Shown here one piece after another: positions 33,699-38,139 of a stretch of DNA of 39,698 bases. The DNA lies in the NCBI GenBank assembly GCA_964564885.1, contig CAZMEH010000109.1, forward strand, positions 1-39,698. The letters are read 5' to 3'. Both the position numbers and the translations under genes were made by a program. This stretch comes from an uncultured Saprospiraceae bacterium. Lineage in GTDB: Bacteria; Bacteroidota; Bacteroidia; Chitinophagales; Saprospiraceae. The notes below the pieces were generated by a model that was not told the DNA's origin, made no database searches, and saw nothing but the letters and a program-made list of their open reading frames with translations. Position 1 is the stretch's first letter, and each line of letters opens with the position of its first letter.

Positions 33699-35186
33699 CT
33701 AAACTAATATAACGTGAACTCGTTTCGCTAAGTTCAAAGGTACAGTAATTTGTTTAGTGTTTTGTTGAACAATCACCTGATTTGCATCGGTATTCGTCAC
33801 CAAAACCTCACTGTTCGGTAACAAACCCAATTGCCAAAGCTTTGCCGTAATATTTTCATTCATTTGTTCTAATGCGATAATAGCCAATTGGTTGACTAAT
33901 ATTTCATCTAAACCAACATCAGGATAACCGAACTTCTTTGGAATGAGCGAACCGTGTGGATCCATTCTCGGATAACCCAATTCGTGGTCAACTTCGTCCA
34001 AGACTTCATCCGTCAAAATATGTTCCAATCGTTCAGCATGTTCATGAATTTCAGCTTCGTTCATACCCGCTTGATTAACCAAATACGTTTCCCAAAGTCG
34101 ATGCGCACGGACTAATTTATTCGCCGCTCGAATACCTTTTTTATTTATTTTAATGGTGTCACCTTTCCATTCTAGCAAACCATTTTGACGCAATTTACTT
34201 AAATACTGTTTGACTTTAGATGCCGAAAACCCTAATCGTTCGACTAAGTTAGGTAAGTTTAAGTTATCTCTCTCCCGCAATTTAAAAGCCTGTTTCAGCG
34301 TGTCTTCCAATTCGACTTTTTTACGAATGCTATTTTTGCGCAAATACTTAAACAGCAAACCTTTCTTTGGTGAAAAGAAAACAGCCAATAAGAAAAACAT
34401 CGTTCCTGTAACCGCCATTGCTGGGCCAGGTGTTGTTTCCAACTTAATGGCAAGTAACAAACCAATAATTGCCGAAAATAAACCAATGAAGGCAGAAAGC
34501 ACCACTACTTTCTGTAATCTATCGCTGAGTAGCAAAGCCGTTGCCGCAGGTGCAATCAACATCGAAACAACCAAAATAACACCAACTGCTTTCAACGAAG
34601 CAACGATTGCAAGCGATAATAACAGCATTAAAAAATAATAAACCGCCCTGACAGGAATGCCAAGCGTTTCCGCAATCACTACTTGAAAAGTCGTTGCAAA
34701 AAGGTAACGATAAAAGATAATCACACTTAAAATGACAAAAAGCGTAATCGCACCAGTCAAATATAAATCCTCATTAGAAACGCCCAAAGCATTTCCAAAC
34801 AAAAAATCTTTCAAGTCTAAATGCACGCCATCTTGTCGGCTAATTCGTGAAATCCACATCACGCCAATTGAAAACATAGCGGTAAACACAATGCCCATCG
34901 CCGCATCATTTTTAATCGGAACATTGCGCTGCAACCAAGTAATCATTATTGCGGTAATAATCCCAGCGAAGACGGCGCCTACAAAAAATCCCATTACGCT
35001 ATAACCTGCAACTACAAAACCAAGCACAACACCAGGCAGCACCGCATGAGAAAGCGCATCGCCAATCAGTGACATATTTCGCAAGACAATAAAAACACCC
35101 AAAATTCCACACATCACGCCAATCATGGAGGAAGCAATCAAGGCTCGTATTGCCCATTCGTATTGTAAAATTTCTAAAATTTCCAT
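33699..35186 (-). CDS. Metal ABC transporter permease (ABC-3/TroCD/ZnuB type) fused to a C-terminal DtxR/MntR-type repressor module plus FeoA/SH3-like domain
   Basis: Residues 1-~280 form a polytopic ABC-3 permease ('GDALSHAVLPGVVLGF'). Residues ~285-495 carry a winged HTH, 'AHRLWETYL', 'HEHAERLEH', 'DPHGSLIP' and a C-terminal FeoA-like segment. Confidence 0.9.
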   Translation of the reverse strand: MEILEILQYEWAIRALIASSMIGVMCGILGVFIVLRNMSLIGDALSHAVLPGVVLGFVVAGYSVMGFFVGAVFAGIITAIMITWLQRNVPIKNDAAMGIVFTAMFSIGVMWISRISRQDGVHLDLKDFLFGNALGVSNEDLYLTGAITLFVILSVIIFYRYLFATTFQVVIAETLGIPVRAVYYFLMLLLSLAIVASLKAVGVILVVSMLIAPAATALLLSDRLQKVVVLSAFIGLFSAIIGLLLAIKLETTPGPAMAVTGTMFFLLAVFFSPKKGLLFKYLRKNSIRKKVELEDTLKQAFKLRERDNLNLPNLVERLGFSASKVKQYLSKLRQNGLLEWKGDTIKINKKGIRAANKLVRAHRLWETYLVNQAGMNEAEIHEHAERLEHILTDEVLDEVDHELGYPRMDPHGSLIPKKFGYPDVGLDEILVNQLAIIALEQMNENITAKLWQLGLLPNSEVLVTNTDANQVIVQQNTKQITVPLNLAKRVHVILV

Positions 35187-35384
35187 TGCTATAATTGTTT
35201 CATTTGACTTTCGTCAAATTGATTGTTATTATTGTTTTGCTCCTCCCGTCGCTGACTATTCGGTCAAGCCTCATGAGAGGAGTTGTTTTATTGCTGTAAT
35301 TGTTCCTCAAGTTAGCGCACTAATACGAGCAACAATTTAGCAATAAAACAATGAGCCGTTAGGCGACAACAATTCAACAACCTT

Positions 35385-36122
35385 CTACACTTCCATCGTT
35401 TTATGAAGAATATTCAATTGACCACCGAACGCTTTTGCGATATTCTCATCAATAAAAGTCGTTTCTGTATCGCCAATAGCGACCAAACGTTGATTGAGTA
35501 GAATAACTTTATCAAAATATTCTCGAACGGTTGATAAGTCGTGATGAATCACTAGAATAGTTTTTCCCTCTTGAGAAAGCTTCTTTAATTGAACAAGAAT
35601 TTTCTCTTCTGTCGTAATATCAATTCCAACAAATGGCTCATCCAATAAGAAAATACTAGCTTCTTGACACAAAGCTCTAGCAATAAAAACACGTTGTTGC
35701 TGACCGCCAGAAAGTTCTCCGATTTGTCGGTCTTTAAGATTTGCAATGCCCATATCTTCCAAAGATTGCATCGCCAAATTCTTATCGTATTGGTTCATTC
35801 GCTCAAAAAAACGCTTGTGCGGATAACGTCCCATGAGCACGACATCGTAAACCGTTGCAGGAAACTGCCAATCCAAATCGCTCTTTTGTGGAACATAAAC
35901 TACTTCTTTCCGCTTGTTTTTAATGACATCGCCATCCACCACAACTTGTCCAGTATTGACTTCAATTAATCCAAGTATTGCTTTGAATAGCGTCGATTTA
36001 CCAGCACCATTTGCACCTAGAACACCGTATATATTGCCTTTTTCGATACTCAAATAGATATTGGTCAACGCCATTTTTCTATCATACGATACCGAAAGAC
36101 CTTTTATTTCTATTGTTTTCAT
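35385..36122 (-). CDS. Metal ABC transporter ATP-binding protein (ZnuC/MntA/TroB type)
   Basis: Walker A 'GANGAGKST', signature 'LSGGQQQRV', Walker B 'IFLLDEP' and an H-loop 'VIHHDL'. Confidence 0.93.
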   Translation of the reverse strand: MKTIEIKGLSVSYDRKMALTNIYLSIEKGNIYGVLGANGAGKSTLFKAILGLIEVNTGQVVVDGDVIKNKRKEVVYVPQKSDLDWQFPATVYDVVLMGRYPHKRFFERMNQYDKNLAMQSLEDMGIANLKDRQIGELSGGQQQRVFIARALCQEASIFLLDEPFVGIDITTEEKILVQLKKLSQEGKTILVIHHDLSTVREYFDKVILLNQRLVAIGDTETTFIDENIAKAFGGQLNILHKTMEV

Positions 36123-36139: not shown

Positions 36140-36189
36140 GTAGCATAGGTAACTTGTCCCGATATTTCGGGACAAGTTACCTGTGCTAC
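36140..36189. repeat. 23-bp-stem hairpin with TCCCGA-TATT-TCGGGA core, intercistronic
   Basis: GTAGCATAGGTAACTTGTCCCGA TATT TCGGGACAAGTTACCTGTGCTAC (one mismatch). It lies between the SBP stop (36194) and the ATPase start (36122). Confidence 0.92.
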
Positions 36190-36193
36190 TATG

Positions 36194-37213
36194 CTACTTT
36201 TTCTTATTAAGTAGCATAGGCAAGAATAATAAAGCCGCACCACCAAAGAGCAAAATAATGATTAGGGTAATGCTAATTGGAGAATAACCGCTTCCGTCTG
36301 TTTCGTCAGAATTGTCTATTTCTTCCAAGTTGACTTTTCCTGTCAAAGCATTGACGATAGTTTCCGTATTCGTTAATAGCATTTTCTCATAAGTACCCGC
36401 TTCGCCGTCTGGGGCGCCCAATGAGTCAGCGTATAATGTACCGCCAATTTTGACTTTCGTATCCTTTGCAATTTGCCGTAACGTCCGTGGATTAATCGTA
36501 CTTTCCACAAAAATGGCAGGAATACCCGTTTCCTTAATGACTCTATATAATCGATTAATATCTTGCGTTTGTGCTTGCGCATCCGTTGAAGTTCCTAAGA
36601 TAGATTCCAACTGCAAACCGTATTTTCTACCATAATACTTAAACGCATCGTGAGAAGTTACTAAAACTCGTTTATCTGCTGGAATGGTTAAAATCAGTTC
36701 TTTCAAACGTATATCCAATGCTTCAATTCTTGTTTTGAATGCTTCAAAATTGCTTTCATAAGTTGCTGTATTTTCTGCGTTTAAAGCAATCAAAGCATTT
36801 TTAATATTCTCTGCATAGATAATTCCATTTGATGCATCCATCCAAGCATGCGGATCTGGCGAATTAGCATATTGATCACTTACAATAGGGTCAACGCCTT
36901 TCGTTGTGTTGATAACAGTTGCTTTTGTACCAGAATTTTCAATAAATTCATTCAACCAACCTTCTAGGGTTAAGCCGTTCATTAATATCAAATTCGCTTT
37001 GACAATTTTAATTGCATCTTGCGGAATCGGCTCGTATAAATGCGGGTCGCCGCCAGTCGGCACTAAGCTTTCTACTTCTACCAAATCACCTGCAATTTGC
37101 ATCGTGATGTCTTTTATAATGGTGGTCGTTACAACTACTTTCGGTTTTTCAGAAGCAAATAAAGCACTGATTAGAAAAGTGTTTATTAATAGTAATAATA
37201 TGTGTTTTCTCAT
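36194..37213 (-). CDS. Metal ABC transporter substrate-binding protein (cluster A-I, ZnuA/MntC/TroA type) with C-terminal transmembrane anchor
   Basis: Signal peptide, then 'GGDPHLYEP', 'PDPHAWMD', 'LVTSHDAFKYYG' and 'LYADSLG' blocks of TroA-like SBPs. An extra tail 'EEIDNSDETDGSGYSPISITLIIILLFGGAALLFLPMLLNKKK' follows. Confidence 0.9.
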   Translation of the reverse strand: MRKHILLLLINTFLISALFASEKPKVVVTTTIIKDITMQIAGDLVEVESLVPTGGDPHLYEPIPQDAIKIVKANLILMNGLTLEGWLNEFIENSGTKATVINTTKGVDPIVSDQYANSPDPHAWMDASNGIIYAENIKNALIALNAENTATYESNFEAFKTRIEALDIRLKELILTIPADKRVLVTSHDAFKYYGRKYGLQLESILGTSTDAQAQTQDINRLYRVIKETGIPAIFVESTINPRTLRQIAKDTKVKIGGTLYADSLGAPDGEAGTYEKMLLTNTETIVNALTGKVNLEEIDNSDETDGSGYSPISITLIIILLFGGAALLFLPMLLNKKK

Positions 37214-37251: not shown

Positions 37252-37293
37252 CATTGTCAATTATCCATTGTCAATTATCTATTGTCCATTAAT
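37252..37293. repeat. 14-bp tandem repeat x3 (CATTGTCAATTATC)
   Basis: Two identical units (37252-37265, 37266-37279) plus a third with 4 mismatches. They fill the dtxR-SBP spacer. Confidence 0.9.
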
Positions 37294-37296
37294 TAG

Positions 37297-37947
37297 CTAT
37301 CTTACAAAAAGGTTTTGAGCGACTTTGTTTGAAATAATCTGCTCCTCTCCGCCATCAATTTTAATGCGAATAGAACCATCATATTCTGCAATCTTAATCA
37401 CTTCAATTGCTGTTCCTAGTTTCAATTTTAATAGGTCAAGGTAATTTAGAAACGATTTTGAATGTTCTTGAACGCCAACTATGACCGCTTGACTTCCTTC
37501 AAAATCAGATAAAATGACCTGTTTACGGAAGGTGAAATTTCCATCTTTATCAGGAATAGGATCACCGTGCGGATCAAATTTAGGGAAACCTAAAAACTCA
37601 TCTAAACTGTTGATTAGTTTATCAGAACGAATATGCTCTAACTCTTCTGCCAACGGATGAACTTCATCCCAAGCAAAATTGAGTTTGTCCACTAAAAAGA
37701 CTTCCCAAATTCTATGTTTACGAATAAGATTGGTGGCTACTTTTCGCCCGCTGTCCGTTAACCGAACGCCTTTCCATTTTTCATAAAGCACCAAATCTTT
37801 GTCTGCCAGCCGTTTAATCATGTCAGAAACAGAGGCTGCCGAAGTGCTCATGCTTCCTGCAATAGAATTGGTGCTAACGGGTGCGCCTTCTTTCTCAGAT
37901 ATTTTAAATATTGCTTTTAGATAGTTTTCTTCTGTACTCGAAACCAT
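37297..37947 (-). CDS. DtxR/MntR-family metal-dependent transcriptional regulator with FeoA/SH3-like C-terminal domain
   Basis: 'ENYLKAIFKI' and the HTH 'SIAGSMSTSAASVSDMIKRLADKDLV', then 'KHRIWEVFL', 'LAEELEH', 'DPHGDPIP'. It is the first gene of the metal-uptake operon. Confidence 0.9.
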   Translation of the reverse strand: MVSSTEENYLKAIFKISEKEGAPVSTNSIAGSMSTSAASVSDMIKRLADKDLVLYEKWKGVRLTDSGRKVATNLIRKHRIWEVFLVDKLNFAWDEVHPLAEELEHIRSDKLINSLDEFLGFPKFDPHGDPIPDKDGNFTFRKQVILSDFEGSQAVIVGVQEHSKSFLNYLDLLKLKLGTAIEVIKIAEYDGSIRIKIDGGEEQIISNKVAQNLFVR

Positions 37948-38008
37948 TAGTTCTAGCTTTAAATTTTAAACGCAACTAAAATGAAGATTGTTTATGTAAA
38001 TATAATAT

Positions 38009-38026
38009 TTTTAGATTAATCTAAAA
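38009..38026 (-). promoter_or_regulatory. Perfect 18-bp palindrome, candidate DtxR-family operator
   Basis: TTTTAGATTAATCTAAAA lies 62-79 nt upstream of the dtxR-like start codon. It is AT-rich with TTAG...CTAA half-sites, as in DtxR-type operators. Confidence 0.35.
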
Positions 38027-38046
38027 GTGTTTTTAGGTTTTAAAAA

Positions 38047-38074
38047 AATGAACTTCAATTAATTGAAATTCATT
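38047..38074 (-). terminator. Terminator after the UbiA/MqnP-like gene
   Basis: 28-bp palindrome AATGAACTTCAATT/AATTGAAATTCATT (one mismatch), with a T-run on the minus strand. Confidence 0.65.
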
Positions 38075-38139
38075 TTCTTAACTGATTAGTAGTTTGGTGA
38101 CTTTAGGTCATCAACTTACTATTATACCTAAAATATTTT

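Follow-up and report, generated by a model that had tools for sequence, protein, structure and literature searches.

What does a repressor module do when it is welded to a membrane permease, and what is left for it to do when a free-standing repressor of the same family is encoded in the same operon? This question is raised by a locus in a 39,698-nucleotide stretch of DNA from an uncultured Saprospiraceae bacterium (assembly GCA_964564885.1, contig CAZMEH010000109.1), the whole of which we call the window. On the minus strand of the window, flanked by ubiA and smpB, four genes stand in series: a free dtxR, the genes for a substrate-binding protein (SBP) and an ATPase, and an open reading frame (ORF) in which an ABC-3 permease continues into a DtxR-like module. 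Together they make up a metal-uptake system, with a binding protein of cluster A-I and only one permease. Our preferred proposal, which we hold tentatively and with slightly less than even confidence, is that the free DtxR is the repressor of this system and that the fused module is a metal sensor for feedback control of the transporter itself. How a membrane-welded repressor regulates genes is the question posed by YtgC-YtgR of Chlamydia trachomatis, and the system described here is a natural experiment on it: the repressor job is apparently supplied in trans by a canonical DtxR, and only the metal-sensing core of the fused copy is strictly constrained. The genes, and the parts of the fusion, are as follows.

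37297–37947, minus strand: free DtxR/MntR-family regulator, 216 aa, with winged helix-turn-helix (wHTH), metal-binding/dimerization and FeoA/SH3 domains (Pfam)
36194–37213, minus strand: cluster A-I metal SBP of the ZnuA/TroA/YfeA family, 339 aa (Pfam ZnuA, E = 4.5e-82)
35385–36122, minus strand: ATP-binding cassette (ABC) ATPase, 245 aa (Pfam ABC_tran)
33699–35186, minus strand: permease-DtxR fusion ORF, 495 aa, ATG start
34371–35186, minus strand: permease domain of the fusion, residues 1–272, ABC-3 type with nine transmembrane (TM) helices (Pfam, match to PsaC)
34308–34370, minus strand: basic linker of the fusion, residues 273–293, predicted by AlphaFold2 to run as a continuous helix into DtxR helix 1
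34146–34307, minus strand: wHTH of the fused module, residues 294–347, with D295 invariant and a variable, basic recognition helix (320–332) and wing
33927–34145, minus strand: metal-binding/dimerization domain of the fused module, residues 348–420 (Pfam Fe_dep_repr_C)
33702–33926, minus strand: SH3/FeoA-like domain of the fused module, residues 421–495 (weak Pfam FeoA match, AlphaFold2 strands)

The original prediction, made from the letters of the window, had read an ABC-3 permease and a DtxR-type module in one ORF, and Pfam, AlphaFold2, Foldseek and 116 homologs all agree with it. The same architecture is present in all of the best 120 matches in a 5.8-billion-protein collection (sources NCBI, ENA, JGI and Logan), at 57–93% identity; nearly all of these proteins are 491–517 aa long, a few of 418–426 aa cover ~85% of the query, and the named sources are Saprospiraceae or Bacteroidota. 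At least 116 homologs of 480–520 aa, from independent assemblies, carry the fusion as a single ORF. Because more than 110 independent assemblies share that ORF, the fusion is not a frameshift, and we reject the idea that a frameshift or mis-assembly joined two separate genes, the chance of which we regard as practically nil. The junction itself (P273-x-x-G276-L277-x-F279) is conserved in the fusion family, and the ratio of nonsynonymous to synonymous substitution rates (dN/dS) across it is 0.02 between the window and its 93%-identity relative L018, a comparison with dS of about 0.6–1.0 and few sites, and 0.11–0.21 against the 86%-identity relative L019. No methionine that could start a separate module lies near the junction in the window, and none is conserved there in the family.

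The permease-DtxR fusion is already known, widespread and annotated, and the original view of it as a rarity has to be given up. According to a review of chlamydial iron biology (PMC5599777), Thompson et al. 2012 (PNAS) described permease-repressor fusion orthologs in 11 bacterial phyla, and JGI names the product 'ABC-type Mn2+/Zn2+ transport system permease subunit/Mn-dependent DtxR family transcriptional regulator'. Distant full-length fusions are present in the 50%-identity library, one of them from bacterium HR37 / a Deltaproteobacteria-labelled metagenome-assembled genome. The protein library also holds other transporter-DtxR fusions (P0202/P0181 and P0179). In one type, of 761 aa, a DtxR-like module with twin FeoA sits on the N-terminus of an Nramp/MntH transporter, and this cluster includes a Chloroflexota member named mntH; a triple fusion of 869 aa joins a ZnuA-type SBP, an ABC-3 permease and a DtxR-like module. 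We discarded the missing Pfam HTH match in such modules as evidence, since the free twin-FeoA DtxR P0157 also lacks it, and we did not use P0205 (467 aa, without SH3) as a chlamydial control; its architecture is YtgC-like and its composition is not chlamydial.

The predicted series of domains stands in its ABC-3 and dimerization parts by sequence and in its HTH and FeoA parts by fold. ABC-3 (residues 8–271, E = 1.9e-72, 244.3 bits against a cutoff of 20.1) and Fe_dep_repr_C (PF02742; residues 349–417, E = 7.7e-24, 83.9 bits against 27) are well above threshold, and the Fe_dep_repress HTH (PF01325; residues 293–342, 18.1 bits, cutoff 26) and FeoA (residues 427–492, 20.2 bits, cutoff 23) fall under theirs. 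Despite its sub-threshold score, the HTH fold is predicted by AlphaFold2 and covered by alignments to solved structures. In a search of such structures, residues 1–280 align with the Mn permease PsaC (7kyp, E = 3.4e-52), and the C-terminal 210 residues align with Mycobacterium tuberculosis MntR (5zr4), MtsR (6o5c, full length), SloR, ScaR, IdeR and DtxR. The single-chain AlphaFold2 model, built on 122 sequences with a mean predicted local distance difference test score of 82, contains nine TM helices, a wHTH, a helical dimerization domain and a beta-rich C-terminal domain (strands 434–494). Foldseek places PsaC first for this model (TM-score 0.91 normalized to PsaC, root-mean-square deviation 2.1 Å), followed by SloR, MntR, ScaR, IdeR and MtsR.

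These comparisons also bear on the side of the membrane at which the module lies. The hydropathy profile of the fusion has nine hydrophobic spans, and PsaC has nine TM helices per protomer, of which TM9 lies at the permease dimer interface (PMC8346216). The pore metal site on TM2 of PsaC (D46/H50) corresponds to D43/H47 of the fusion (GDALSHAVLPG versus GDAISHAVLPG), both invariant across 122 sequences. The N-terminus (MEILEILQYEW) is conserved among homologs; three of its first 12 residues are acidic and none is basic, and 9 of the 29 residues that follow TM9 are Lys or Arg. Because this positive-inside charge pattern coincides with homology to the PsaC topology, a cytoplasmic location of the fused DtxR module, as predicted, is supported. 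The permease is encoded with its cognate ATPase and a cluster A-I SBP, both directly upstream in the window. Since the operon encodes no second permease, this one should act as a homodimer, with two DtxR modules per transporter.

The two DtxR copies were compared in an alignment of 117 fused sequences (the window protein and 116 homologs) and one of 118 free sequences (the window protein and 117 homologs at 61–94% identity to it); the families were aligned separately and then placed in register. The free regulator, which opens the operon as the original prediction had it, has all three Pfam domains above their cutoffs, and its nearest solved structures are M. tuberculosis MntR 5zr4, SloR, ScaR and MtsR (1e-30 to 1e-39). 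Both copies keep their metal ligands, again as predicted. In the fused family, E294, D295, H362, E366, H381, E385, E388, H389, D409, H411 and Q441 are conserved in every sequence, and in the free family E7, N8, H78, E82, H97, E101, E104, H105, D125 and H127 are invariant. The ligands of MtsR include H76, E80, C123 and H125 (PMC6698748); H362, E366, D409 and H411 of the fused module align with these residues of its primary Mn site. An MntR-like second site (D295, E385, E388 and H389) is also kept, and invariant, in the fused module. The helix-1 ligand is an invariant Asn (N8) in the free DtxR, where Asp or Met would be expected, and Asp (D295) in the fused module. Neither Q441 nor W451 varies among the 117 Saprospiraceae fused sequences, and both remain at 90% or above once distant representatives are added. 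The motifs by which the module had been recognized, AHRLWETYL, HEHAERLEH and DPHGSLIP, occupy residues 361–369, 381–389 and 409–416. The Leu of the last of these (L414; 33945–33947, minus strand) is peculiar to the window: 116 of the 117 family members have Pro there (DPHGSPIP), a single-base difference (CTC versus CCN) beside ligands D409 and H411. H383 and L387 are minority states as well.

Whereas the metal sites are invariant in both copies, the DNA-reading surfaces are not. The 118 sequences of the free family show practically no variation in the recognition helix, T35-S-A-A-S-V-(T/S)-D-M-x-K-R-L47, or in the wing, Y55...G60; the fused family keeps only the hydrophobic core (L314, L318, L329 and L332), and nowhere in the whole fusion protein is conservation among the 117 orthologs lower than in this helix and wing. 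Mean entropy is 2.35 bits (fused) versus 0.32 bits (free) in the recognition helix and 2.60 versus 0.73 bits in the wing. In pairwise comparisons within the same five genomes, the fused copies are 33% identical over the recognition helix plus wing and the free copies 82%, set against 66% and 76% in the dimerization domain and 76% in the permease domain. The net charge of helix and wing is nevertheless higher in the fused copy (+4.3 versus +2.0). In the few-site comparison of the window with L018, dN/dS of the wHTH is 0.11 in the fused copy and 0.04 in the free one, with 0.03 for the permease; over the recognition helix and wing it is 0.21 in the fused copy, and the free one has 0 nonsynonymous versus 9 synonymous changes. 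As judged from these alignments, the fused head is still a folded and selected domain, relaxed rather than decaying, which lacks a fixed DNA-contact sequence. That the module is a complete repressor, as it had been called, is doubtful: its metal ligands and its fold are kept, but its recognition helix and wing vary as those of the free paralog do not.

A conserved palindrome suggests what the free copy recognizes. The two elements concerned lie upstream of the free dtxR.

38009–38026, no strand assigned: proposed operator, the perfect 18-bp palindrome TTTTAGATTAATCTAAAA, conserved in relatives
37997–38004, minus strand: -7-like promoter element TATATTTA, of the TAnnTTTG type with a deviating final base, read from the sequence

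Each of 11 related loci of ~13 kb has a single TTTAG-N6-CTAAA motif, apart from one extra copy within a coding sequence in L018, and the intergenic copy is in every case located at the promoter of the free dtxR or of a solitary fusion gene; the palindrome that the original prediction had singled out is thus conserved, once per locus and at promoters. It stands ahead of the free dtxR in L001, L002, L004, L011, L016 and L018, and ahead of five of nine solitary fusion genes (L003, L007, L008/L009, L010 and L013); the other four (L005, L012, L017 and L019) lack it. In related loci the palindrome is directly upstream of a Bacteroidota-type -7 box, TAnnTTTG. L018 has the box TATATTTG at the position of TATATTTA, and we take the latter to be a probable promoter element of the window. 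In bacterium HR37 (L016) the palindrome is TTTAGATGAATCTAAA and overlaps a TATAAT box, and in L014 and L015 its left half is degenerate. No copy was found in the 198-bp spacer before the window's fusion gene, which is presumably read through from the operon promoter.

Because the invariant operator matches the invariant recognition helix and not the variable fused head, we assign the palindrome at 38009–38026 to the free DtxR as its likely operator, which would make the system an autoregulated uptake operon of the tro/mts/slo type. An exact TTTAG-N6-CTAAA (TTTAGGGAAACCTAAA) also occurs within the free dtxR coding sequence, at 37579–37594 in the window and 2826–2841 in L018. This copy encodes the conserved FLGFPKF motif and is probably a coding by-product, though an intragenic operator is conceivable. 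Between the ubiA stop and the operator, in L018 as well, lies an AT-rich inverted repeat (38040–38081) whose 21-nt arms directly adjoin each other; it could be the ubiA terminator or a second protein-binding site.

With the operator in hand, the behavior of YtgR can be weighed as a model for the fused module. A membrane or cytoplasmic protease would free the module, whose metal-bound dimer would then serve as a soluble repressor alongside the free DtxR, either at the same palindrome or at lineage-specific sites, giving two repressors of different metal affinity. We regard this as the main rival of our proposal, though as somewhat less likely. The domain order is that of YtgC-YtgR, for which both cleavage, in Chlamydia as well as in E. 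coli, and repression of the ytg promoter have been described; the fused metal ligands are all intact; the wHTH fold is retained, basic and under purifying selection; and the operator stands directly upstream of many solitary fusion genes. D295 in place of N8 could also give the two copies different affinities. Set against this are the head and the linker. Variation in the protein peaks in the recognition helix and wing, whereas the candidate operator is nearly invariant, and the system comes with a canonical free DtxR whose head does not vary. The linker (residues 273–293) is better conserved than the fused HTH, with P273 and G276 invariant, L277 and F279 at 97% or above, and a mean net charge of +6.6. 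AlphaFold2 predicts a single helix, 277–305, from just past TM9 into DtxR helix 1, which bears ligand D295, so that the connection of the module to TM9 looks rigid in the model; this is not a disordered, protease-accessible tether, and there is no internal start codon near the junction. A linker predicted to be helical and conserved nonetheless neither proves nor excludes cleavage. To our knowledge, neither the protease nor the stimulus for the release of YtgR in Chlamydia has been identified. On indirect grounds, then, a released module that acts as repressor appears less indicated here: the invariant free head and the invariant operator point to the free DtxR. In L017 (7497–8981) an HtrA/DegP-like protease gene (Trypsin_2 and PDZ) is convergent with the solitary fusion gene, the ends of the two being 3 bp apart. 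We did not accept this neighbor as evidence of regulated proteolysis; it occurs at one locus only, on the opposite strand.

We favor instead a division of labor between the two copies. Metal-loaded free DtxR would bind TTTTAGATTAATCTAAAA over the promoter and switch the operon off; where the permease gene lies elsewhere, the free DtxR would often shut off that gene too. At a higher cytoplasmic metal level, both modules in the permease dimer would bind the metal and clamp together, and this movement, passed on through the connection of helix 1 to TM9, would slow or lock the importer. Such feedback, or trans-inhibition, would add fast post-translational control to the slower transcriptional one. 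We propose that the fused module acts mainly at the protein level because sensing and dimerization appear intact, the joint to TM9 appears rigid and the DNA-reading surface is unconstrained. It is more doubtful whether the module has gone all the way, that is, whether a repressor fold has been exapted as an in-cis allosteric gate and is no longer a transcription factor, the free paralog keeping the transcriptional job; this we consider an unlikely, if attractive, extreme.

Several observations weigh against the division of labor that we favor. In YtgC-YtgR, the only characterized relative, the module is released by cleavage and binds DNA. Since base-specific contacts are few in DtxR-family proteins, a helix that varies but stays basic might bind DNA all the same. 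The module of the window (GFSASKVKQYL) is nearer to the canonical SAxxV pattern than the family consensus is, and the fused module of HR37 scores above the Pfam cutoff for the DNA-binding domain. Finally, because the fused HTH is under purifying selection (omega about 0.1–0.2), it must be supposed to do something.

The comparison of the paralogs bears on a further possibility, that the tethered module holds and releases the free DtxR according to transporter activity or metal load and so acts as an anti-repressor, through a heterodimer or through oligomers mediated by the FeoA/SH3 domains. Free and fused copies are found paired in different lineages, the dimerization core H-R-L-W-E is common to both, and FeoA domains make dimer-dimer contacts in MtsR (PMC6698748). 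The two modules are only about 33–35% identical, however, and differ systematically at dimer-interface positions (F84, L89 and L103 in the free copy versus Y368, M/I373 and Y387 in the fused one); their SH3 domains are the fastest-evolving parts of both proteins, and the permease homodimer would already bring two identical modules close together. We judge such titration of the free repressor to be improbable. We give still less credence to a role of the module as a cytoplasmic acceptor or buffer for the ion leaving the pore, or as a structural appendage without regulation. It would fit a protein whose metal sites are invariant and whose DNA head is not, whose module is joined directly to TM9, at the dimer interface in PsaC (PMC8346216), and whose like is found on Nramp and on an SBP-permease fusion. 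A regulator fold with two sites per subunit would nevertheless be an unusual chaperone, and the conserved dimerization core and the predicted coupling through helix 1 favor an allosteric switch over a passive site. We know of no precedent for such metal handling.

Whether the two copies belong to one system can be judged from their relatives. The order free DtxR-SBP-ATPase-fusion is found in the window, in L001, L002, L004, L006 and L011 and in the syntenic L018; HR37, of a different lineage, has the same order with one extra gene between dtxR and SBP. The extra gene (L016, 3460–4245) encodes a 261-aa, beta-rich protein with a signal-like N-terminus, no Pfam match and an outer-membrane-like character, and may provide the uptake system with an outer-membrane partner. 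The fusion gene is solitary, with no SBP, ATPase or DtxR gene within 5–6 kb, in L003, L005, L007, L008/L009, L010, L012, L013 and L017, and solitary too in L019. The claim that both DtxR copies share an operon is therefore true of the window but not of about half of the sampled relatives, and even in the window the fusion gene does not directly follow the ATPase gene, from which a structured 198-bp spacer separates it. In L019 (1–3066) smpB is kept downstream, and upstream a 1021-aa ORF replaces the DtxR-SBP-ATPase cluster, with no operator; because L019 differs from the window in this way, contiguous and split arrangements seem to interconvert even between close relatives. Two Lewinellaceae/Phaeodactylibacter genomes (L014 and L015) show the converse, a DtxR-SBP-ATPase cluster without a permease gene. 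The simplest reading across these genomes is one system, contiguous in some and divided between two loci in others, that has no permease but the fused protein. A scan of genome contigs with one protein query returned six close relatives. Because the pairing of two sensors recurs in Saprospiraceae and in bacterium HR37, the original idea of two sensors in one system gains weight.

The metal that this system carries is best judged from its sensors and its binding protein. Both DtxR modules are nearest to Mn sensors. The best solved-structure matches of the SBP are YfeA, AztC, MntC and PsaA, and its third ligand position is His (VTSHDAF) where YfeA has Glu, which gives a His3Asp pattern; AztC also has His there in the same alignment, and the ligand set of TroA is His3Asp as well. 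The ATPase matches the NCBIfam models of Mn/Fe and AztA-type ATPases below their cutoffs, and NCBIfam scores in general stay below equivalog cutoffs and are spread over Mn/Fe and Zn (Azt) systems. Judging by the regulators, the metal would be of the Mn/Fe type; the His3Asp SBP leaves Mn, Fe and Zn as candidates. The SBP has a signal-like N-terminus without a lipobox Cys, and toward its C-terminus (residues ~300–339) a hydrophobic stretch, ISITLIIILLFGGAALLFLPMLL, followed by NKKK, which suggests that the tail is a membrane anchor. Its tblastn matches in relatives reach residue ~330–333.

The spacers of the operon carry three further features.

37252–37279, no strand assigned: two 14-bp direct repeats of CATTGTCAATTATC in the dtxR-SBP spacer
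36140–36189, minus strand: hairpin with a 23-bp stem at the SBP-ATPase junction (RNA folding)
35187–35384, minus strand: strongly structured 198-nt spacer ahead of the fusion gene (RNA folding)

The repeats, which had been put forward (as 37252–37293) as a second binding site, have no counterpart in the equivalent spacers of L001, L002, L004, L006 and L011, which are unrelated and carry other repeats. Because they are not conserved in these five relatives, they are probably not an operator, and we reject them as a second one. The hairpin (minimum free energy –38.5 kcal/mol, z = –9.9) overlaps the end of the SBP gene region. A stem-loop behind the SBP gene is the classic position for keeping the SBP segment of an mRNA above that for the membrane components, and segmental mRNA stability or attenuation would be its likely role here. 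The 198-nt spacer is also strongly folded (–67.7 kcal/mol, z = –7.7); it occurs only once in the window and is absent from L018, where the gap is 59 bp, and relatives have other, unrelated hairpins at the ATPase-fusion junction. It could be a strain-specific insertion, an attenuator or an mRNA-stability element. A search of this and the other spacers against Rfam gave no family at gathering score, only two chance matches to microRNA models at the E-value threshold, and we reject a riboswitch or known RNA there. Palindromes of the form CCCGA-N4–6-TCGGG occur nine times in the window (7271, 8268, 11477, 20076, 20490, 24560, 26691, 33670 and 36158), at least two of them intergenic (33670, past the fusion gene, and 36158, within the SBP-ATPase hairpin), and a motif of this type, TCCCGATAGTTATCGGGA, lies upstream of dtxR in L004. 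They look like a family of repetitive extragenic palindromic (REP)-like elements.

Whichever role the fused module turns out to have, three consequences follow: a TTTAG-N6-CTAAA operator motif for this DtxR subfamily; 'orphan' fusion genes that are probably the missing permeases of DtxR-SBP-ATPase clusters; and a warning that fusions of this kind should not be labelled repressors as a matter of course. Three features appear to be undescribed in the literature that we searched: the conserved association of a fused with a free copy, which extends across phyla; the split-locus organization under one operator; and, in the fused copy, a metal core that is invariant next to a DNA head that is unconstrained.

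Among known systems, YtgC-YtgR (YtgCR, CT069) of C. trachomatis is the right precedent, as the original prediction had it. It too is one ORF in which an ABC-3 permease is followed by a DtxR-like module with conserved ligands, it belongs to an SBP/ATPase/permease uptake operon, and its module is cytoplasmic; we liken the two by architecture as described, rather than by comparison with the YtgC sequence. The chlamydial system differs in having a second permease, YtgD, and no separate DtxR gene in ytgABCD as described, where the system here has one permease and a free DtxR. YtgR is cleaved and binds DNA with Fe2+, whereas the recognition helix here is unconstrained. The remaining parts resemble TroABCD-TroR, MtsABC-MtsR, SloABC-SloR and ScaCBA-ScaR, in which a cluster A-I importer is likewise under a free, three-domain Mn sensor of the DtxR family, with an AT-rich promoter palindrome and the same SAxxVSxM recognition helix as in the free DtxR here. 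In those systems, however, the permease has no sensor domain, and the helix-1 ligand of the sensor is Asp rather than Asn (N8). The SBP is His3Asp like TroA and AztC, and differs in this from PsaA and YfeA, which are His2GluAsp. The permease shares nine TM helices and the Asp/His translocation site with PsaBC of Streptococcus pneumoniae (7KYP/7KYO), but PsaC ends ~9 residues beyond the point where the DtxR module starts here.

For the gating that we propose, the nearest parallels lie among trans-inhibited importers and Mg2+ channels, and they are functional analogies only. In MetNI, ModBC, MgtE and CorA, a cytoplasmic ligand-binding domain senses the imported substrate and shuts the transporter; the regulatory domain of MetNI and ModBC is on the ATPase and not on the permease, and none of the four uses a DtxR fold. 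If the fused copy does gate its permease, it would represent a new class of trans-inhibition for metal ABC importers, in which a transcription-factor fold has been reused as a transporter regulator. The same logic might then cover the DtxR-Nramp and SBP-permease-DtxR fusions, and uncleaved YtgC would be worth a second look.

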